DNA of 64,000 nucleotides. It comes from an uncultured Cytophagales bacterium. GTDB taxonomy: Bacteria; Bacteroidota; Bacteroidia; Cytophagales; JAAEPT01. The stretch is from the NCBI GenBank assembly GCA_963815495.1, contig CAWFGW010000007.1, positions 129,531-193,530 of the forward strand, read 5' to 3'. Within the stretch, counting starts at the first letter, position 1; every line of letters begins with the position of its first letter. The notes under the pieces are model-generated. The model did no database searches and was not told where the DNA came from. It was given only the letters and a program-made list of their open reading frames with translations. Position numbers and translations under genes: made by a program. Shown in pieces: positions 7,955 to 17,102 of the stretch.

Positions 7955-8579
7955 TTAAAATTCAAAATAACTATTGTCTATACTTTTTGCTATCCCTTCT
8001 AATCCAGGATAAATGGTTTTATGATCTACTCCCAACCATTGTAATTCCTTTTTAATTTCAAGTTTTTTATCAGGATTAATTTCTATACTTTCTAAAAAAA
8101 AATCACTTGATGATTTTTTTAAATCTAGTAGCCCGTTTACTTGATTTCCAAAAATTGTAAAGCGAGATTGCTGGCTTCTCATTCGTTCATCAAGTGGAGT
8201 GGGCATAATTGCTAAAGGATAAAATGCCTGTGACCCTGAAATACTTTTAAAATTCATTTCAATATATATTCTACTTATTTCATTTAATTTCCATTTCCCT
8301 AGAACATCTTTAATATCTCCTTTTTCGTAATCACGTAAAGGCCCAAGTATGATGTTTACTTTTTTTAATTCATCATTTATATTCAGGAAGGTTTTTTGGT
8401 TTAATAAATGAGGATTCAACACCAAAAATTTTACAGCTTCACAGTTAGTTTTTTTTCTCTCAACAGCAAAATAAAGTGCTACGAGTGCGTTAGTTGTCCA
8501 ATCCAACTCTTGTCTTCATGCCATAATGAGCCATCATATGATAGAAATTCCAACTATATTCAGTTACTGAACCTATCAT
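7955..8579 (-). pseudogene. FRG-domain gene, 5'-truncated and frameshifted
   Basis: The FRG signature AHYG-x-x-TR-x-LDWT is split between two frames: MAHYGMKTRVG in one and LDWTTNALVALYFA in the ORF frame, with a stop between them near 8505-8518. The ~100 aa normally upstream of this motif are missing. Confidence 0.6.
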
Positions 8580-8722
8580 CTCACACTCTCCTCCACTATC
8601 TTAATCTCCTCCTCCGTTAAGCCATACAAGGCATACACCAACTGGTCTATCTCAGCTTCTAAGGCACTGGTATCTGCTGCTGGGTCTGCTTTTTTGATAT
8701 TTATACTTATATTAAAACTCAT
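8576..8722 (-). pseudogene. relic of the C-terminal tail of an N6-adenine methyltransferase / type IIG R-M (Eco57I/PglX-like) gene
   Basis: 48-codon frame ...KKADPAADTSALEAEIDQLVYALYGLTEEEIKIVEESVR*. The LVYxLYGLTEEEIxIVE ending is the stereotyped tail of that family. Nothing upstream of it survives, because the helicase stop codon is directly adjacent. Confidence 0.45.
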
Positions 8723-10903
8723 TTAAATAACACATTCAAATATTCCAATAATCCTTAAAGTTTTAACTTCATCATCTTTCAACTTTAAAGGCTTATAATC
8801 GGAATTGGTTGATTGAGGTAATAGTGTAATTGTATCATGTTGCCAACCATCCTCAGACACCGTCTTTTTACTATGGTATTCCTTAACAGTGTAACATGAA
8901 CCAAAATCAGAATCTTGTATATCCGTATGTTCTGCTAGTACTATTAGTCCATTTCTCGATCCGCCAGAATATTTTTTGAATAAACAAATAGAACCATCTG
9001 GAATTACTTTATTCATTGATTCACCCACTACTTTACACGCAAAAAAATCTCTAGAAGCTTGATAGCGTTGGGGTAGAGAAATCCATTCATAGTCTTCAAC
9101 ATTTTGTATATCACTGAAACTTCCAGCAGCTGCTTTTAAATCATATAAAGGAATAGAATTTTCAAAAGGGACTATATCATTAGGGTTTAAAGGTGTAATT
9201 ATATCTTTAAAGGATGATTTAACGGGAATGAATCGGGATAAATAATCTCTTAAATTTTTATCACAGACATACACATAAGTTCCCTTTATACCTCTTAACA
9301 AAATCGTTTTGTAGATGTTGATTATATAAGATTTTAATTCTTTAGGATCTTTTATTGATTGCTTACCGTTTTTATCAAAATAATTTTCAGAGATGATTTC
9401 TATTTCATTTGTTTGTTTATTGTAAGTTATTTCATTTCCAAAAATTATCCCTGCATAATTTAAATCATAACCTTGAGTTGTATGTATACATCCGACTTCG
9501 TTAATCGAATTTTCTGAGTTAATCCAATCGGTTGCAGTTCCGTTCCATTTTAATTGAACATTATCTATCTCAATGTCAAAAGCTTGAGAATCTTTATTAG
9601 AAATCCAACTCCAAGAATAACCAGCTATTAATCGAGATAATCCATTTTCATTATTCCTAGATTTGATTTGATCCACAAACTCTTCGATTGAATCAAAAAG
9701 TAAAAACTCATATTTTGGAGCATTGAATGGAGCAATGTCATTCGTTAATGTCCCATTCAACATTTTAGTAACAAAGTCTACATACGCATTCCCACCTTTC
9801 ACTCTAAATTGAGAGTTCAATTTTTCAACTGATGTTGACAAACTTAGTTTTAGTCTATCAAAACTTTGTTTTTCTACATCTGAAGGCTTTATGGACTGGG
9901 AGTCATCATAGAATAAAATAGTCTTTTTGGATTGCATTACAACCCAGTCTAATTCATTAGATGTATTCTTTTCAGTCCCAAGTTTTTCACAAACTTTGTC
10001 AAAAGCACCATAGTATGCGCCAAGATTTATTCTGCGCCTAAGTCTATGAGATTCATCAACTAGAATAATATCGAAGTCTTCTTTAATTACCTCAGCGGGC
10101 CCAATAACCATTCTAGCACTTAAACCTTTAATATTCTTAAAGACTTTTTTAATGGTACTTCTAAACGAGGCCATCGGGATAACCAACGCCATTTTAGGGT
10201 TAGGAAACCTAATTTTAAGTTGTTCTATTAGATAAATGAATTCTTTCTCGTCTTCACCGAATTCTTTAAAGTTGAAATCATCATTATCAGAATTAAGTAT
10301 CTTAAAAAGGAATATAGCTAATATGGTTTTCCCTGTCCCTGCTCCACCTTCAATAAGGATATTTTCTTTTTTATCATTTAGAAGACTTTTTAAAATAATG
10401 AGTAGGCCTTGTCTTTGATCATAAGTTAATGTCTTATATGGAGAATATTTAAACAGATCCGAATTATCAATATGTTGAATCGAATGTTTAGTAATTCCTT
10501 CTGATCTCAGTGAGTTCCAAATTGTATTAAAAATATCCCAGTAAACTTCTTTTTTTTGATAGTAATTGTGATTGGCTAAACCCAAATTCCCATTTAAAAG
10601 TTTATACTGCCCATCTCCGGATATATACTTAATCAAGTTAGATTCTATATCTAAAGTGGCAGATTTATTAAATTTATCACTTGTAATTAAATGTACGGAT
10701 GTAAGCTTTTTTTTTGTGTCATTTTTTAAATGAGCTGCCATGCGAGCATATGCATCAGTTGTTTCTCCAACATAGGCTTCTTTAACTCCCTCATCACTTA
10801 AAATATAAACTAAAGGCCAAAAATCTTTAGCATGATGATTTGTACTAAAATCATCAAAAAGGTTAGAATTAAAATTGTATTGCTTTACTGCAATTTGGCT
10901 CAT
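8723..10903 (-). CDS. three-domain protein: GIY-YIG nuclease + DUF2075-type P-loop (SF1-like) helicase + C-terminal S24 (LexA/UmuD-like) peptidase
   Basis: GIY-YIG at aa 28-100 (LVYIL...AYVGETTDAYARMAAHL). Walker A GGAGTGKT at aa 186-193. Walker B ILVDESHRL at aa 280-288. HTTQGYDLNYAGIIFG motif. S24 domain at aa ~583-726 with AAAG (591-594), GESM (Ser629) and YTVKEY (Lys674). Confidence 0.8.
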   Translation of the reverse strand: MSQIAVKQYNFNSNLFDDFSTNHHAKDFWPLVYILSDEGVKEAYVGETTDAYARMAAHLKNDTKKKLTSVHLITSDKFNKSATLDIESNLIKYISGDGQYKLLNGNLGLANHNYYQKKEVYWDIFNTIWNSLRSEGITKHSIQHIDNSDLFKYSPYKTLTYDQRQGLLIILKSLLNDKKENILIEGGAGTGKTILAIFLFKILNSDNDDFNFKEFGEDEKEFIYLIEQLKIRFPNPKMALVIPMASFRSTIKKVFKNIKGLSARMVIGPAEVIKEDFDIILVDESHRLRRRINLGAYYGAFDKVCEKLGTEKNTSNELDWVVMQSKKTILFYDDSQSIKPSDVEKQSFDRLKLSLSTSVEKLNSQFRVKGGNAYVDFVTKMLNGTLTNDIAPFNAPKYEFLLFDSIEEFVDQIKSRNNENGLSRLIAGYSWSWISNKDSQAFDIEIDNVQLKWNGTATDWINSENSINEVGCIHTTQGYDLNYAGIIFGNEITYNKQTNEIEIISENYFDKNGKQSIKDPKELKSYIINIYKTILLRGIKGTYVYVCDKNLRDYLSRFIPVKSSFKDIITPLNPNDIVPFENSIPLYDLKAAAGSFSDIQNVEDYEWISLPQRYQASRDFFACKVVGESMNKVIPDGSICLFKKYSGGSRNGLIVLAEHTDIQDSDFGSCYTVKEYHSKKTVSEDGWQHDTITLLPQSTNSDYKPLKLKDDEVKTLRIIGIFECVI

Positions 10904-11226
10904 AATTCATTATATTTTTTTGCAGTACCTTTAGACTTTTGAACTGGATATTTTTCAGCATTTTTTTGAACTTTAGCCATTATAATTTCTTTCACATCAA
11001 GATTATACTTATCAGCAAGCAAAAAAGCATATGCAAAAACATCTGCTAGCTCTTCCTTTATTTTATTCAGATTAGCCTCTTCAGGATTTTTCCATAAAAA
11101 TAATTCAAGTAACTCACCTGCTTCTACATTAAGCGCTAACGCTAAATCTTTTGCATTATGAAATTGTTCCCAATCTCTTTCATTCCTGAACTCTATGAGT
11201 TTTTTAATAATTTCTTCCATAGTCAT
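10900..11226 (-). CDS. MazG-like nucleotide pyrophosphohydrolase (dCTPase/DCTPP1-like all-alpha NTP-PPase)
   Basis: RDWEQFH...EAGELLE...EELADVFAY motifs (EExxE/D metal sites). ATGA stop/start overlap with the downstream helicase gene. ATG 11226 chosen over the upstream TTG. Confidence 0.75.
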   Translation of the reverse strand: MTMEEIIKKLIEFRNERDWEQFHNAKDLALALNVEAGELLELFLWKNPEEANLNKIKEELADVFAYAFLLADKYNLDVKEIIMAKVQKNAEKYPVQKSKGTAKKYNEL

Positions 11227-11370
11227 AACAAATGTTATAAGCCTCAATTTAATCTAATGAAAACAAAACATGTATAAAAACAGGTCATAATTTATAAAAA
11301 CTTTATTATTAAAAAACATAACTTGTCAATCATGAACATAATTTATGTTTGACTTTTATAAAAACAAACC

Positions 11371-11802
11371 ATGGACATTCCTGAAAAAATAAACTACAAG
11401 TACAACACTAAAAAAGCACTTACTTATGTGCTCGTTGGGTTAGGACTTACTTTGGGGTCTATTATTGTCCCGGTAGTAAGAATTCTTGTGTTCATTGTTG
11501 GTCTTATGGTAACCTTTACTGGTCTAGGGGCTTTAGTCCGCAGAAAACCGCAACTTTTATTGGATAAAGAAGGGTTATATATTGGCTTTAAGATTAAAAG
11601 GAAAATACCCTGGCGATTTATAGATGCAACTAGTGTGAAAAAAGAAAAAGTAGATGATCGGCTTGTGTGGTATTTAAGAGTACGTACTAAGTCGGTAAAA
11701 GGCGGGGTTATCGGGTATAATAATTTTGAAGCAAATCTCGACTTATTAAAAATTGATTCTTATGTACTAAAGGAACAACTGAACCATTTTAGAGGAATTT
11801 AA
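11371..11802 (+). CDS. small membrane protein with two TM helices and a PH-like soluble domain
   Basis: 143-aa ORF. Hydrophobic stretch at aa 17-55. No catalytic motif. Confidence 0.45.
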   Translation: MDIPEKINYKYNTKKALTYVLVGLGLTLGSIIVPVVRILVFIVGLMVTFTGLGALVRRKPQLLLDKEGLYIGFKIKRKIPWRFIDATSVKKEKVDDRLVWYLRVRTKSVKGGVIGYNNFEANLDLLKIDSYVLKEQLNHFRGI

Positions 11803-11809
11803 TACCAGC

Positions 11810-12436
11810 CTATTTTTCAATCTCCTTTAACACCGACACATACAACTTACTAATCGCTGCTTTGGAAGCCCCATTTTTATTGATATAAACCAACAGATGC
11901 TGATCATGGTATTCAATACATAGTTTCTCAAAGTCTTTTGCTAGCCTCCTAACTGTAGCTCCCACATGTTGTTCAAACGTATCTTTTGAAGGCGTTTTTA
12001 AAAAGAGTGTAGTAGATAATCCACCAAGTTGCACAAACCCTGCAGACTCCAAGTCGTGTTTGCTGATTCGTCCCAATGAATCCAGTGATTCGATCACAAA
12101 GGGTGGCCAGTTACTATCAGGTAAACCAAAAATAAGTACCATACGTGTGTACTTGATATCCGTATTTCCAGTGCTTGCATACACCCAATCCAATGCATAA
12201 TCTCGGGCCTCACCTCTGCTTTTTACATAGCAGTTTTCCATATCTACGACAGGTCCTTTGGCTTGTAAAAACGTCTTTGGGAAAAATGACTGCAGCTGGT
12301 CGTTAAAGTCATCTTTAAAACTTTTAAATCCTAGATTAGCAAAGAGCTGATCCAGTTTTTCGGTTCTTCGTCTTTTAATACCGATACCTATCACCGCAAA
12401 CAATCCGAGGAGGACAAGAATTAAAGCTTTTACCAT
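11810..12436 (-). CDS. membrane-anchored hypothetical protein
   Basis: 208-aa ORF with a single N-terminal TM helix followed by KRRR. No recognisable domain. Confidence 0.45.
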   Translation of the reverse strand: MVKALILVLLGLFAVIGIGIKRRRTEKLDQLFANLGFKSFKDDFNDQLQSFFPKTFLQAKGPVVDMENCYVKSRGEARDYALDWVYASTGNTDIKYTRMVLIFGLPDSNWPPFVIESLDSLGRISKHDLESAGFVQLGGLSTTLFLKTPSKDTFEQHVGATVRRLAKDFEKLCIEYHDQHLLVYINKNGASKAAISKLYVSVLKEIEK

Positions 12437-12585: not shown

Positions 12586-12927
12586 CTAATTCGACCAAAC
12601 CGCATATCCTTTTCTTCTTAACTCCAGAGTTAACTGCTTTTCCATCTTTAGTGCCTCTTCCCGGGTTTTGTAGGGTGGTAAATGGCCGTATAAACTAGAC
12701 CGTAAATAAGCACCATACTTTTCGACTATGGAGGAGGAAATTTTATAACCCTTTTTACTTAAGGCACTCGTCCTGTGTTGTAAAAACCGCTCTTGAGGTG
12801 TTTTGCTTGTCATACCTACATACACACATTCAAGCGCACCATTGTATTGGGGGTTTGCAGTCCTGAACTTGGTGTTTTCAGAATATACTTTGCGCAAAAG
12901 CTCTATTACGTAAACAGTATAAGGCAT
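12586..12927 (-). CDS. stand-alone GIY-YIG-like small protein
   Basis: YTVYVIEL ... CVYVGMTSKTPQERFLQH pattern (GIY ... YIG ... R ... H) in a 113-aa protein. Confidence 0.5.
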   Translation of the reverse strand: MPYTVYVIELLRKVYSENTKFRTANPQYNGALECVYVGMTSKTPQERFLQHRTSALSKKGYKISSSIVEKYGAYLRSSLYGHLPPYKTREEALKMEKQLTLELRRKGYAVWSN

Positions 12928-12996: not shown

Positions 12997-13998
12997 TTAG
13001 GTTCTGGGCTCAATTTTAATAGTCCATACAACTTCTTGTAGTCTATTCGCTATTTTTTTCATCGTATTTAAAACAGCTTTTTCATCGGGTAAAGAACTAT
13101 ACACTAAATCCTTAAATGCACCACTATACGTAGGCTTTAGTTCTACCCAAACAGCATCTATATTTTTAAAAAACAATGCTTTGCTAGGGTGATGCTCTAA
13201 CCACGAATTATTGTTTCTAAAACTTACAACATCATCTTGCGCTACTTTTAATAACATCTCTTCAAAAGCTGGGGAAAGAAAAAACAACACAAACTCATCT
13301 TGCTGTAGCAGTTGGTGTAAATCGTAGGTATGACGAATTTTCTTCTTTAAGTCATCCATTGGATTTTCTCCGTAAGAAAACCGAACTAAGCTCATTATTT
13401 TTTCGCAAAGGGTTCGAATGGGTTCTAATACACGCACTTCAAATGGCATCATACCATTGGCTTCTGCGATAGCTGTCTGCCCAGTATTTAGCATCATATC
13501 GCCCACAAAGGAGTTCAGTTTTTTATTGGTGTATGGCTCAAAATAACCTAACCAACTTGATTCTAATATGATAACATCTCTTACTTGTCCAAAACTACCT
13601 TCAAATGATTTATTATACGTATGCGCTGTTTTACGATTCATCCCCATTTTATGAGTAATTTCTTCAATAAATACTTCGGGTAAAACCTTTTCGACTACTT
13701 TACTAATCGTTCTAATCTTGGTTTTTAGATTATTATCGTTTTCACCCTCTCTGCGCAATACCACCAAGTCTATATCTTCTGAAAAACGATCTATCATTTT
13801 ATAACATTTCGATAGTGCTGTACCTCCCTTAAAAACAGTCTCCTCTCCTATCCTATGGCTAAAAATGATATGAAGCGCATAGGTGACCCAATAATCTTTC
13901 TCAACATAAATTGCAGGCATACCCATGTAATCAGCTGTAAACTGAATCGCTTGTCGAAATAAAGTTTTGTCTTCGTGTAGCTTCATGCGATATTCCAT
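12997..13998 (-). CDS. abiEii: AbiEii/AbiGii-family nucleotidyltransferase toxin
   Basis: YVEKDYWVTYAL ... FKGGTALSKCY ... RFSEDIDLVV motifs. Overlaps the upstream antitoxin gene by 16 nt. Confidence 0.85.
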   Translation of the reverse strand: MEYRMKLHEDKTLFRQAIQFTADYMGMPAIYVEKDYWVTYALHIIFSHRIGEETVFKGGTALSKCYKMIDRFSEDIDLVVLRREGENDNNLKTKIRTISKVVEKVLPEVFIEEITHKMGMNRKTAHTYNKSFEGSFGQVRDVIILESSWLGYFEPYTNKKLNSFVGDMMLNTGQTAIAEANGMMPFEVRVLEPIRTLCEKIMSLVRFSYGENPMDDLKKKIRHTYDLHQLLQQDEFVLFFLSPAFEEMLLKVAQDDVVSFRNNNSWLEHHPSKALFFKNIDAVWVELKPTYSGAFKDLVYSSLPDEKAVLNTMKKIANRLQEVVWTIKIEPRT

Positions 13999-14708
13999 TT
14001 TTCTGTTGCAAACAATACTTTGTCAGCACCAGGTAATTTATACTTAGTAATAGGGTTTAATGATTTTAAAAGAGATATAGTCAAATCTCTTTGTTGTAAT
14101 TGTTCCAACAAAGCGCCTAACAAAGCTCTAGTCGCGGGAGGATATTTTAAAGCCAACCGAACTAACTTAGTGATCTCTTTATCTGAAAAACTCTTCAATA
14201 TAGCTAATAGCCGCTTTAACGATGATTCTATTGTTGCATCAGGTATTTTTTTAATATATCGTATTGCATCTAATAGTTGAAGTAGAGGAATATTCTCTTT
14301 GGTAATGGTGTTTTTTTGTTTTATAAATGAAATGGTATAGCGTTCCCTTTTAAAGTTTGGACGTATCACATTTTTACCTATTTGAATAGTATTGCTTACC
14401 TGTGTAGTTAAGCCTAATTGACTGTAAACACTGTAACCTGTGAGGTAACCTATAATTTTCCCATTGTCTTCCAACAAGTCTTTTACTATTTGCGCTTGAT
14501 TAGGCTGTAGCTTTCCAAAAGGCGTGTCTTCAGGTTTGTAATACTTGCCTTTGGATAATTTGGCAATTTTTCCTGATTGCACCATTCTATTTAGTGCTTT
14601 AATAACCGCTTCCTTTTTACCCACCTCTGTTACAAAGTCAGCATAGGTAAACACATACCCCATAGGGAGTCTATCTATGCTATTCGATATATAATCAGTT
14701 ACTTTCAT
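13983..14708 (-). CDS. abiEi: AbiEi-family (DUF6088-like) antitoxin/transcriptional regulator
   Basis: N-terminal winged-helix-like region (FTYADF...AVIKALNRMVQSGKIAKLSKGKYY), placed directly upstream of abiEii and overlapping it. Confidence 0.75.
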   Translation of the reverse strand: MKVTDYISNSIDRLPMGYVFTYADFVTEVGKKEAVIKALNRMVQSGKIAKLSKGKYYKPEDTPFGKLQPNQAQIVKDLLEDNGKIIGYLTGYSVYSQLGLTTQVSNTIQIGKNVIRPNFKRERYTISFIKQKNTITKENIPLLQLLDAIRYIKKIPDATIESSLKRLLAILKSFSDKEITKLVRLALKYPPATRALLGALLEQLQQRDLTISLLKSLNPITKYKLPGADKVLFATEKWNIA

Positions 14709-14738
14709 ACATTATCCACACAATAAAGATAATTAATT

Positions 14739-14768
14739 TGTCCAGTTTATTATAAAAAAAACTGGACA
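14739..14768. promoter_or_regulatory. inverted repeat TGTCCAGTTT-N10-AAACTGGACA, candidate AbiEi operator
   Basis: Perfect 10-bp arms at 14739-14748 and 14759-14768, lying 31-60 bp upstream of the abiEi ATG (14708). Confidence 0.4.
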
Positions 14769-14781
14769 TTTTTGATATTTA

Positions 14782-14827
14782 GTAAGGTATATCTAACTTG
14801 CGTACACGCAAGTTAGATATACCTTAC
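14782..14827. repeat. 46-bp perfect palindrome (21-bp arms, 4-nt centre)
   Basis: GTAAGGTATATCTAACTTGCG-TACA-CGCAAGTTAGATATACCTTAC. Read directly and both arms checked base by base. Confidence 0.9.
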
Positions 14828-15170
14828 CATGTTAATTGCCCTACTGCAATTGTAAACTCACTTCCATTTTTCACTCCTCTCTAAAAAACATCACGTTTAT
14901 TGAACAATAATCACAATTTAATCCTGTCCTATAAATGGAAGGCTACAAATACATTGAAGTAAATCTTCACATTTTCCAGTGTAAAAATTGTCTAAATTTT
15001 ACAAAATCGTCTCCGTCTCAATAAGATTCCTGATCAACTCCGCGCTGCTACGTTGTTTGGAATGACGGTGTGGGTATTGGTTTTACGTGGATACCTGGTG
15101 CATATTGAAAAAATTTTACCCTTAAAAACAAAATAGGCTTACACTTTTGGTGTACGCCTTTGCTTTTGTG

Positions 15171-15458: not shown

Positions 15459-17102
15459 TCAATGTTCGTTTTTAAGCGTAGAAATGTCAGATTTGATGTC
15501 GTTCATCTGATTTCTGACTTTGTCCTTATGCTTGCCGATGATCACACCAGCATTCGGATGACCTTTTAAGCTACCTAGTTCTACTGCTATCTCAAGCTCA
15601 TCTTTTTGCGACCCTTCTGGTAACTTCGCGACAAAGGTGCTGGTTGCTTGCTTATATGCTTTCGATATCGATTCAATTTTGTCTTTTGGTACAAACCCCA
15701 CAGCATCGTATTGCGCGATGAGATCAGTAAACTCTGATACCTGATCTTCTTTAAGTTGATTTATCGCTTCAATGAGTTCACGTTTTGCTTTTGCATTGTC
15801 CACAAATTCTGCGTCTTTCTCAGCAAAAAAAGCTTTTCTTCGGTTGAAAAAATAATCACAGGCTTCACGAAAACGACCATAAATGGCATCACTTTGCTTT
15901 TGAGGTACAGGCCCTATTTTTTTCCAATCGGCTTGTAAACGTTTGATTTTATCGGCTGTATCCTTAAAGTTTTCATGGTCTTTTAAGGCTTCCGCTTTTT
16001 CACACAATGCTTCTTTGGCTTTTAAGTTTTCCTTGCGCTCGTCATCTAATTGATTAAAAAACTCATTTTTCAATTGATAAAACGCTTTGATCTTGCCCCA
16101 AAACTGCTTGGTGATCGTTCTTCCAATTTCCTTATCTACCGGTCCAATCGCTTTCCACAGGTCTTGCTGTTCTGCAATTTCTTTGGTGCGTTGATTCCAA
16201 TCAGAAATTTTAGCGTTGGGAGTATCTATTATCGCTTGTAGTTGTTCAATAATGGCCGCTTTTTTTAGACCGTTTTCTTTTTTCTGAACGGCAAACTCTT
16301 TCTCAAATGCATCACGTTTGTCATACAGGGCTTGAGAAGCAGTCTTCAAGCGTTGCCAAAGGTCTTCCCGTAATTCTTCCGGTATTGGCCCGATGTGCTT
16401 ATATTCTTTGTGGTAAGCAGATAGCTGACCTAAAGCTTTGGATATAGATTCTTCGTTTATTAAACCCTCTACCGACTCACAAATGCCTACTTTAAGGTCA
16501 TAGTTTTTCTTTCGATCCAACTCCTTCAACTCAAAACCAATTGACCGGTTGTTGTAATAAATATCCAACAAGGCTTTATAGTTTCTCCAAAGCTCTGATT
16601 CGGTGTAAGAGGTCACATCGTTTGCTTCCCGCCAGGCTTGTTGCAGATCTTTTACCCTGTTAAAGGTGGCATTGGTTACTTCATTGCTGTTAACCACCTC
16701 ACGAAGTTCTTCCACTACGGCCTCTTTCTTGCGCTGAGCACTTTTTTCTAACTCCTTCTTTTGAGATAAGTAGTTCTTTACGCGCAGGTATAATTCATCA
16801 GCTTGTTTATAGAAAGCTGTTGTTTCTTGATCCAACCGGAAGTCAAAATCAGCAGGTGCTCCACCCTCTTCTTTAAATCGCTCCAGTGCTTCGGCTTTTT
16901 CTTCACCATGTATATCATCAAAAGCAGCTTTAATATCCGATAATTCAGCATTAACCGCATCCATATCTTTGGTTTGGAGTTCTTTTAGGGCTGCTAGCAG
17001 TTCTGCTTTCGTAAAAGAAGAATAATCAACCTCTTCTCGCTGTGGGGCTTCATTCTCACCGAGTAATAATTCTTCTTCGGTTGAGTTACTTAATTCTTGC
17101 AT
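15459..17102 (-). CDS. DUF349 repeat protein
   Basis: Multiple W-x-x-IGPVP-containing helical repeats (QDLWKAIGPVDKE, ADWKKIGPVPQKQ). Confidence 0.7.
   Translation of the reverse strand: MQELSNSTEEELLLGENEAPQREEVDYSSFTKAELLAALKELQTKDMDAVNAELSDIKAAFDDIHGEEKAEALERFKEEGGAPADFDFRLDQETTAFYKQADELYLRVKNYLSQKKELEKSAQRKKEAVVEELREVVNSNEVTNATFNRVKDLQQAWREANDVTSYTESELWRNYKALLDIYYNNRSIGFELKELDRKKNYDLKVGICESVEGLINEESISKALGQLSAYHKEYKHIGPIPEELREDLWQRLKTASQALYDKRDAFEKEFAVQKKENGLKKAAIIEQLQAIIDTPNAKISDWNQRTKEIAEQQDLWKAIGPVDKEIGRTITKQFWGKIKAFYQLKNEFFNQLDDERKENLKAKEALCEKAEALKDHENFKDTADKIKRLQADWKKIGPVPQKQSDAIYGRFREACDYFFNRRKAFFAEKDAEFVDNAKAKRELIEAINQLKEDQVSEFTDLIAQYDAVGFVPKDKIESISKAYKQATSTFVAKLPEGSQKDELEIAVELGSLKGHPNAGVIIGKHKDKVRNQMNDIKSDISTLKNEH

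Follow-up and report, generated by a model that had tools for sequence, protein, structure and literature searches.

A two-gene cassette in the genome of an uncultured Cytophagales bacterium couples a small MazG-like nucleotide pyrophosphohydrolase (gene 1) to a large protein (gene 2) in which a GIY-YIG nuclease, a DUF2075-type superfamily 1B (SF1B) helicase and a LexA-like Peptidase_S24 domain are fused in that order. It lies in a 64,000-nucleotide stretch of contig CAWFGW010000007.1 (assembly GCA_963815495.1, positions 129,531 to 193,530), which was analysed as a whole and is here called the window. We favour the reading that the cassette is a self-contained defence module directed against phages or other mobile elements, and put its probability at about one half (0.5). 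Such a module would probably be a new form within nuclease-helicase (Nhi-class) immunity, neither a member of Nhi itself nor a categorically new kind of system. Support for the defence reading comes from recurrent defence and mobile neighbours, variable flanks, horizontal spread, and the validated Nhi and Nhi-like relatives. An initial annotation of the window had proposed an uncharacterised defence system at this site. Its architecture, the coupling of its genes, their co-occurrence, the recurrent islands and the lack of an existing name all stood up to closer analysis; the immune function is what we infer from them.

The two genes are a real unit. Read directly from the sequence, both open reading frames (ORFs) are present on the minus strand where they had been annotated, and the four-nucleotide overlap of their stop and start codons supports the translational coupling proposed for them. 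An upstream TTG at position 11247 offers a possible alternative start for gene 1. To survey the pair, one genome per GTDB species was scanned, yielding 80 loci. A MazG homologue lies directly upstream of gene 2 on the same strand in 79 of these loci, and the pairing recurs in three of three viral contigs and in four of six distant plasmid loci, so that the co-occurrence expected of a genuine two-gene system is found well beyond this genome. The junction is also conserved: among the 75 homologous loci at which it was scored, 53 have a 4-nt overlap, 15 a 1-nt overlap and five a gap of 0–2 nt. A separate case is the JGI contig L094 (7400-10190; JGI 3300064096), where ∼271 nt lie between the two genes and there is no overlap. 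We argue from the conserved 4-nt overlap that the two proteins would be made in fixed stoichiometry, perhaps as parts of a complex.

No third gene belongs to the unit. When the ORFs of the 80 loci were clustered, no conserved third gene emerged, and the next real family was common to seven loci at most; the recurrent clusters of intermediate size are antisense shadow ORFs inside gene 2. The only MazG-less locus of the 80, in Pedobacter sp. ASV1-7 (L067:7064-10007), has lost more than gene 1. An unrelated 306-aa ORF there takes the place of MazG and of the opening 58 gene-2 codons, those for the GIY and YIG strands, and the helicase-S24 part is still open. A scan for sigma-70 promoters and terminators was uninformative (17 sites against 16.6 expected); Bacteroidota use other promoters.

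Gene 1 was annotated as a MazG-like enzyme with intact metal-binding motifs, and the sequence comparisons bear this out. With 72.6 bits, it passes the gathering score (GA) of 27 that Pfam sets for the MazG-like family PF12643. In the PDB, it matches the structures of dCTP pyrophosphatase 1 (DCTPP1, also RS21-C6; 6sqw and 2a3q) over its full length, with an E-value of 1.3e-20. The RDWEQFH motif, the acidic residues E35/E38/E41 and E59/D62, and the C-terminal K..G..KY tail are near-invariant in 81 aligned MazG sequences (Table 1). Gene 1 thus shares with DCTPP1 the RDWEQFH, EXXE and EEXXD motifs, the C-terminal KY tail and full-length homology. It differs from DCTPP1 in being a bacterial, minimal form of 108 aa encoded in a mobile operon. 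DCTPP1 belongs to a family of house-cleaning enzymes.

Because the catalytic residues are conserved, we argue that gene 1 would act as an enzyme. It is also more conserved than its partner, with 52–59% identity where gene 2 shows 33–42%. Its role is the least constrained part of our model: it may deplete dCTP, remove modified dCTPs that protect phage DNA, sanitise the nucleotide pool and so spare host DNA, or control the effector in the manner of an antidote. A second, solitary MazG paralogue, ∼50% identical, was seen at 16679-17014 of locus L052, where it adjoins an rsmH-like methyltransferase gene. Stand-alone members of this MazG clade, of the type of that paralogue, are probably housekeeping enzymes.

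The domain order assigned to gene 2 at the outset, with intact active sites, was borne out by Pfam matches, alignment conservation and fold matches. Conservation was assessed in an alignment of 50 close homologues and then in 100 sequences that included divergent S24-bearing representatives. Profile scores for MazG, DUF2075 and S24 all lie above threshold. The GIY-YIG match of gene 2 itself falls marginally short, at 22.0 bits against a GA of 22.6. Nonetheless, the assignment of the N-terminus as a GIY-YIG nuclease is sound, because homologues pass the gathering score, the motif residues are invariant and UvrC is the best fold match. More distant homologues score 25.8–36.2 bits, above the GA, and many close homologues have precomputed PF01541 matches. 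The seven motif residues listed in Table 1 are kept in 97–100 of the 100 aligned sequences. A separate AlphaFold2 (AF2) model of residues 1–175 has a mean confidence (pLDDT) of 77.7 and a beta-beta-alpha-beta-alpha topology. Its best Foldseek matches in the PDB are the GIY-YIG domain of UvrC (1yd6 and 1ycz), at a probability of 0.98 and a TM-score of 0.60–0.65 over 89 aligned columns, with an E-value of only 0.03–0.06.

The Pfam family SLFN-g3_helicase/DUF2075 (PF09848) is matched over residues 180–548 with an E-value of 7.7e-63, and the Walker A and B motifs are intact (Table 1). PDB sequence searches with gene 2, as a single query or as a profile, returned no match. The full-length AF2 model (pLDDT 77.5) has the SF1B helicases Dna2, Upf1, RecD2, SLFN11 (7zep), Dda and nsp13 as its Foldseek neighbours in the PDB.

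The same model places a beta-rich C-terminal domain beyond a low-confidence linker at residues 560–570. Peptidase_S24 (PF00717) is matched over residues 585–720 at 35.3 bits (GA 23.3), and at up to 69 bits in variants of the protein. This domain keeps the sequence motifs predicted for self-cleavage of the LexA type. Of ∼95 S24-bearing homologues, 82 have Ala and six have Cys at position 593 of the predicted scissile bond, and 89 have Gly at position 594. In the six homologues with Cys, Ala-Gly gives way to Cys-Gly, the UvrD-independent scissile bond of the UmuD type. BLASTP of the domain against E. coli LexA gave 28% identity at an E-value of 2e-6. That alignment pairs AAAG with VAAG (within one residue), GESM with GMSM (S119 of LexA) and TVKEY with TVKRL (K156). 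The distances from A593 to S629 and from S629 to K674 are 36 and 45 residues, versus 35 and 37 in LexA. The best phage matches to the S24 region are CI-like repressors.

With LexA, UmuD and phage CI, gene 2 therefore shares the S24 fold family, the Ser-Lys dyad and the Ala(Cys)-Gly cleavage site. Unlike the LexA and CI repressors, it has no N-terminal helix-turn-helix (HTH) domain in Pfam searches, and its S24 domain is C-terminal to an enzyme. Cleavage in LexA or CI inactivates a repressor, whereas cleavage in gene 2 would release an effector.

Table 1. Features of the cassette, in window coordinates
Feature	Position	Strand	Remarks
MazG-like / DCTPP1-type all-alpha NTP pyrophosphohydrolase gene (gene 1)	10900..11226	-	108 aa from ATG
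MazG metal-binding motif EAGELLE, aa 35-41	11104..11124	-	E35, E38 and E41 the same in at least 97% of 81 sequences
MazG metal-binding motif EELADV, aa 58-63	11038..11055	-	E59 and D62 in at least 97%, E58 in at least 85% of 81 sequences
ATGA overlap, gene-1 stop TGA and gene-2 start ATG	10900..10903	-	plus strand reads tcat
Gene 2, GIY-YIG / DUF2075 SF1B helicase / S24 fusion	8723..10903	-	726 aa
GIY-YIG nuclease domain, aa ~28-110	10574..10822	-	Y33, Y44, G46, R54, H58, E87, N104
Helical linker between nuclease and helicase, aa 111-175	10379..10573	-	AF2 secondary structure; no family match
DUF2075 / Schlafen-group-3-type SF1B helicase-ATPase, aa 176-558	9230..10378	-	PF09848
Walker A GGAGTGKT, aa 186-193	10325..10348	-	K192 in 98/100 sequences
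Walker B DESH, aa 283-286	10046..10057	-	D283 in 97/100, E284 in 98/100
Flexible low-confidence linker, aa 559-585	9149..9229	-	pLDDT 57 for aa 561-570; S24-less homologues end about here
LexA/UmuD/CI-like Peptidase_S24 domain, aa 586-726	8726..9148	-	PF00717
Predicted self-cleavage site Ala593-Gly594 (AAA|G)	9122..9127	-	from conservation and LexA alignment
Predicted catalytic Ser629 (GESM)	9017..9019	-	Ser in 95/96 domain-bearing sequences
Predicted general-base Lys674 (TVKEY)	8882..8884	-	Lys in 95/98 sequences

The S24 domain, which the initial annotation had counted among the parts of the system, turned out to be accessory and confined to one sub-clade, and so does not define the system. 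When representatives at 50% identity were searched exhaustively, 3,403 relatives of gene 2 were found, 503 of them at E ≤ 1e-30. They are mostly 550–600 aa long and align only to query residues ∼5–560, so that most lack S24; the alignments of the S24-less representatives end at query residues ∼556–566. Among the best 150 of the 3,403 relatives, ∼20 carry S24. Other architectures occur as well: a C-terminal HTH_3 domain that replaces S24, an N-terminal HSDR_N domain before GIY-YIG, and a strong S24 (69 bits) without a GIY-YIG match (representatives P0257, P0124 and P0148). In several places, relatives without S24 are likewise preceded immediately by a gene for a nucleotide pyrophosphohydrolase. 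Such pairs are found on Bacillus cereus-group megaplasmids (33–38% identity), on a Lactiplantibacillus plasmid (27%) and on a plasmid of the archaeon Halalkalicoccus (27%). Since the pairing with MazG thus extends to relatives without S24, the ancestral unit is a MazG protein with a nuclease-DUF2075 helicase, and S24 is a later regulatory addition in a Bacteroidota-centred clade. Two of the S24-less MazG and GIY-YIG-DUF2075 pairs on Bacillus megaplasmids (L084 and L085) are flanked by HNH endonuclease genes. L084 also has a large DEAD/DEAH helicase gene nearby, and L085 a zeta toxin and a second NTP pyrophosphohydrolase.

The cassette has spread horizontally. Its 80 loci cover many Bacteroidota orders at 58–70% identity, and also Oceanospirillaceae, Bermanella, Balneolaceae, one Rickettsiales metagenome-assembled genome (MAG) and several candidate phyla radiation (CPR) lineages at 54–57%. 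The evidence for this spread is the identity of 54–57% in CPR, Rickettsiales and Gammaproteobacteria MAGs, compared with 65–70% within Bacteroidota, and the low GC content of the cassette. Three IMG/VR contigs carry a full-length gene-2 homologue (42% identical) preceded by a MazG gene (59% identical). Carriage by phages is rare, with six weak phage records in addition to these three contigs.

In the window, the cassette and its immediate surroundings have 30–32% GC, against 38–41% in the flanks. More broadly, positions 8001-12000 and 13001-15000 have 30–35% GC, compared with 38–41% in the flanking housekeeping regions. This broader pattern is consistent with a horizontally acquired island spanning HipBA to AbiE. 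The setting first described for the cassette, between HipBA, FRG and restriction-modification (R-M) debris on one side and AbiE on the other, was recovered: HipA/HipB, a truncated FRG ORF and AbiEii/AbiEi were all confirmed. A 48-aa ORF (8577-8722, minus strand; MSFNISINIKKADPAADTSALEAEIDQLVYALYGLTEEEIKIVEESVR) begins one base after the stop codon of gene 2. It reads ...LEAEIDQLVYALYGLTEEEIKIVE, which we take to be the usual C-terminal tail of R-M (type I/IIG) methyltransferases. This likeness suggests that an R-M gene was displaced or cut short by the cassette. The 183-aa ORF at 7955-8506 (minus strand) aligns to no more of the FRG profile than its final ∼20 positions, below threshold, and is probably a 5′-truncated remnant. 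Between the cassette and AbiE there are three more ORFs. Two of them (11371-12436) encode a 143-aa predicted membrane protein with a weak DUF6249 match and a 208-aa protein with no match, neither of which is conserved beside the cassette elsewhere. A stand-alone 113-aa GIY-YIG-like protein (12586-12927, minus strand), which scores 21.7 bits, just under the GA, adjoins AbiEii/AbiEi.

Comparable neighbourhoods recur in other genomes. At the Maribacter arcticus locus, the cassette has an integrase, a CAP12-PCTIR TIR protein and SIR2 with HerA as neighbours, and another Maribacter locus carries IS110 and a group II intron remnant. The Cellulophaga locus has AbiEii/AbiEi, Imm27, and an HTH protein with a DNA methylase and DUF2357/PDDEXK_7. 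L094 is flanked by type III R-M, PIN and SoFic genes. For a PADLOC scan we took, at each of the 80 loci, the two closest ORFs on either side of the cassette; the outcome is given per family, not as an enrichment. The upstream neighbours include SoFic, ThsA, a DRT reverse transcriptase, PD-Lambda-5, AbiEi, methylases and several PDC candidates. Downstream, PARIS AriA/AriAB, PtuA-like ATPases, NsnB, AbiLi, DndC/DndD, dCTPase and methylases were found. By this per-family listing, the association of the cassette with defence genes is repeated, not exclusive. Defence and mobile islands are a recurrent setting of the cassette, but at several loci it sits among housekeeping genes. In Polaribacter (L081) and Flavobacterium aciduliphilum (L091), the cassette lies near adenylosuccinate lyase and IMPDH/NMO-like genes, a vicinity that may be a recurrent insertion neighbourhood in Flavobacteriaceae.

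How might such a module work? RecA-ssDNA filaments, which are abundant in phage replication or DNA damage, are the stimulus for cleavage of LexA, UmuD and CI. By analogy, the S24 domain of gene 2 would restrain the nuclease-helicase, for instance within a dimer held together by S24. When phages replicate or DNA is damaged, filaments of RecA on ssDNA, or another signal of the co-protease kind, would form and provoke cleavage at Ala593|Gly594, catalysed by Ser629 and Lys674. This would free a fragment of ∼593 aa, co-linear with the natural S24-less homologues, which could translocate on DNA and cut replicating foreign DNA, and possibly host DNA. Meanwhile, MazG would hydrolyse dCTP-like or modified dNTPs and thereby starve or ‘de-armour’ phage DNA synthesis, or would keep the effector harmless to the host. 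That cleavage releases or activates the effector is the simplest reading of the protein's layout: S24-less homologues end at ∼560 and the predicted scissile bond, residue 593, follows a flexible linker, so the N-terminal product would correspond to the stand-alone form. The full chain, in which RecA-ssDNA (with host RecA or a phage recombinase) triggers self-cleavage of S24 and licenses the GIY-YIG/SF1B effector while co-translated MazG removes dCTP or modified dCTP, is a tentative proposal with the odds against it as a whole.

Several observations weigh against a defence function. An identity of 65–70% across Bacteroidota orders is above what is typical for fast-evolving immune genes. Stand-alone housekeeping paralogues of the gene-1 MazG exist, and S24 domains also dimerise or bind RecA in repair, as in UmuD. 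The flanks are housekeeping genes without defence neighbours in Polaribacter, Fulvivirga and Flavobacterium aciduliphilum, and the Pfam families of the upstream neighbours across the 80 loci are mostly ordinary genes. Two other distant DUF2075 relatives have no MazG. Finally, Millman et al. 2022 list a candidate family named ‘Pyrophosphatase’; its member SG192 (Bacillus firmus), a 98-aa pyrophosphatase with a 643-aa DUF2075 protein, is marked ‘x’, and SG193 (B. thuringiensis) is entered as ‘Cloning failed’. We take the ‘x’ to mean that no defence was observed, given that SG141, the validated Nhi-like entry, carries a ‘v’ in that table. On this reading, the sole tested relative of the pairing is apparently unprotective; the other could not be cloned.

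Some of these points would suit an accessory SOS-type module for DNA repair or genome maintenance, in place of immunity. Here S24 would dock the nuclease-helicase on RecA filaments or be processed like UmuD, the UvrC/Slx1-like GIY-YIG domain and the SF1B helicase would process stalled forks or lesions, and MazG would sanitise non-canonical dNTPs. UvrC, the best fold match of the nuclease, is a repair enzyme; Dna2 and RecD2 are among the fold neighbours of the helicase; S24 aligns with LexA; and MazG resembles the house-cleaning DCTPP1 family. High sequence conservation, the housekeeping flanks at some loci, and a Y-family polymerase with SRAP near one locus fit as well. A repair role sits poorly, however, with the patchy distribution across phyla and lack of conserved synteny, with the low GC of the cassette relative to its flanks, and with the recurrent defence, toxin-antitoxin (TA) and mobile neighbours. 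Moreover, of the DUF2075 nuclease-helicases whose function has been tested, the closest ones act in immunity. We therefore regard a repair module as rather unlikely. Defence could also operate with an S24 domain that does not cleave and serves instead for dimerisation, for binding of DNA or RecA, or for sensing of a phage protein. Something else would then activate the effector: MazG might do so through the nucleotide levels, for example, or the protein might bind a phage SSB or recombinase, which is what has been reported for Nhi. Most family members keep MazG without S24, so regulation cannot generally depend on that domain, and one variant has an HTH domain in its place. Yet the Ser/Lys dyad and the Ala/Cys-Gly site are kept at LexA-like spacing in ∼93–99% of S24-bearing homologues, divergent ones included, which would be unexpected for a purely structural domain and makes this version unlikely.

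More doubtful still is a selfish addiction or homing cassette, with the nuclease-helicase as toxin and the coupled MazG as antidote, maintained by post-segregational killing or by nuclease-promoted insertion. The gene order is TA-like, with the small protein first and a 4-nt overlap, and the cassette abuts the tail of a truncated R-M gene. The GIY-YIG fold is well known from homing endonucleases. Where MazG is missing, the strands of gene 2 that carry the nuclease motif are missing too, though this is a single case, and SG193 could not be cloned. On the other hand, MazG keeps all of its catalytic residues, as befits an enzyme and not a simple binder. The 80 loci have unrelated flanks and showed neither target-site duplications nor a conserved insertion site. 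TA-like behaviour and defence are, in any case, not mutually exclusive.

Should the cassette serve in defence, the nuclease-helicase class would gain a widespread module, whose relatives run to thousands of protein clusters in Bacteroidota, Firmicutes, CPR and archaeal plasmids. The cassette would bring two twists: an obligate partner resembling a dCTP pyrophosphatase and, in one clade, a LexA-type switch wired into the effector. It could also account for the recurrence of MazG-family enzymes, whose role there is not validated, at predicted defence loci. In DefensePredictor, MazG is mentioned solely as a defence domain that is predicted and not validated. Were the proposed mechanism correct, it would be the first case in which LexA-like autoproteolysis activates a defence enzyme effector instead of inactivating a repressor. 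It would also provide a simple, testable model of how immunity reads DNA-damage or ssDNA signals post-translationally.

Among known systems, none combines these parts under one name in PADLOC-DB v2.0.0 or in the literature that was searched, as had been supposed at the outset. No PADLOC model covers either protein over its full length. MazG had no match there, and gene 2 and its relatives, including the Bacillus and divergent ones, had only weak, partial matches (Nhi, AbiO, PDC-S14 and PDC-S41). The Nhi model aligns with the helicase core of gene 2 at 35.6 bits, over model positions 174–376 of 470, and AbiO reaches 29.6 bits; the candidate PDC-S14 partially matches the N-terminus. An NCBIfam search of both proteins gave nothing meaningful, and the literature search found no named system of MazG with DUF2075/S24. 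Two further candidates were set aside. Papers on bacterial Schlafen defence concern the RNase domain, not the DUF2075 helicase, and CMoRE, a GIY-YIG type IV enzyme, has other domains.

The nearest validated relatives are single-gene anti-phage systems: Nhi of S. epidermidis (SERP2475; Bari et al., bioRxiv 10.1101/776245), which joins PD-(D/E)XK to DUF2075, and the Nhi-like system of B. cereus (SG141; Millman et al. 2022). PF09848 also serves as an Abi-type marker in the mapping of defence islands. Like gene 2, Nhi and Nhi-like proteins have an N-terminal nuclease and a DUF2075 SF1B helicase in one polypeptide. Gene 2 departs from them in that its nuclease is GIY-YIG and not PD-(D/E)XK, in the presence of S24, and in its MazG partner at 79 of 80 loci. 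The closest precedent for the pairing itself is the ‘Pyrophosphatase’ family introduced above. SG192 and SG193 resemble this cassette in placing a MazG-like pyrophosphatase of ∼100 aa beside a DUF2075 protein, and the gene-1 MazG is 56% identical to the SG193 pyrophosphatase. Their DUF2075 partner shows ∼27% identity to gene 2 over 113 aa around Walker A/B, has another, non-GIY-YIG N-terminus (PD-(D/E)XK-like by eye) and lacks S24. The combination of MazG with a DUF2075 nuclease-helicase was thus already listed by Millman et al. 2022. The idea has a precedent, though an unvalidated one that never received a system name, and for the GIY-YIG/S24 version none was found.

Nucleotide-hydrolysing enzymes are used as anti-phage effectors, or combined with them, in dCTP deaminase, dGTPase and Gabija-type systems. 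The cassette differs from nucleotide depletion and from the nucleotide-gated nuclease and helicase of Gabija-type systems in its enzyme family, which is the all-alpha MazG. A more distant counterpart is human SLFN11, whose helicase domain belongs to the same Pfam family (PF09848) and has the same fold (7zep) as that of gene 2. Unlike SLFN11, gene 2 has no Schlafen (AlbA_2) RNase domain and carries a predicted DNA nuclease as its effector. SLFN11 binds ssDNA under replication stress (PMC13056530), which conceptually parallels a possible RecA/ssDNA-sensing S24 switch. If the cassette serves in defence, it may give access to the signals that Schlafen-type (DUF2075) helicases respond to, and if the proposed mechanism is right, it would be a bacterial counterpart of SLFN11-style sensing of replication stress by a Schlafen-type helicase.

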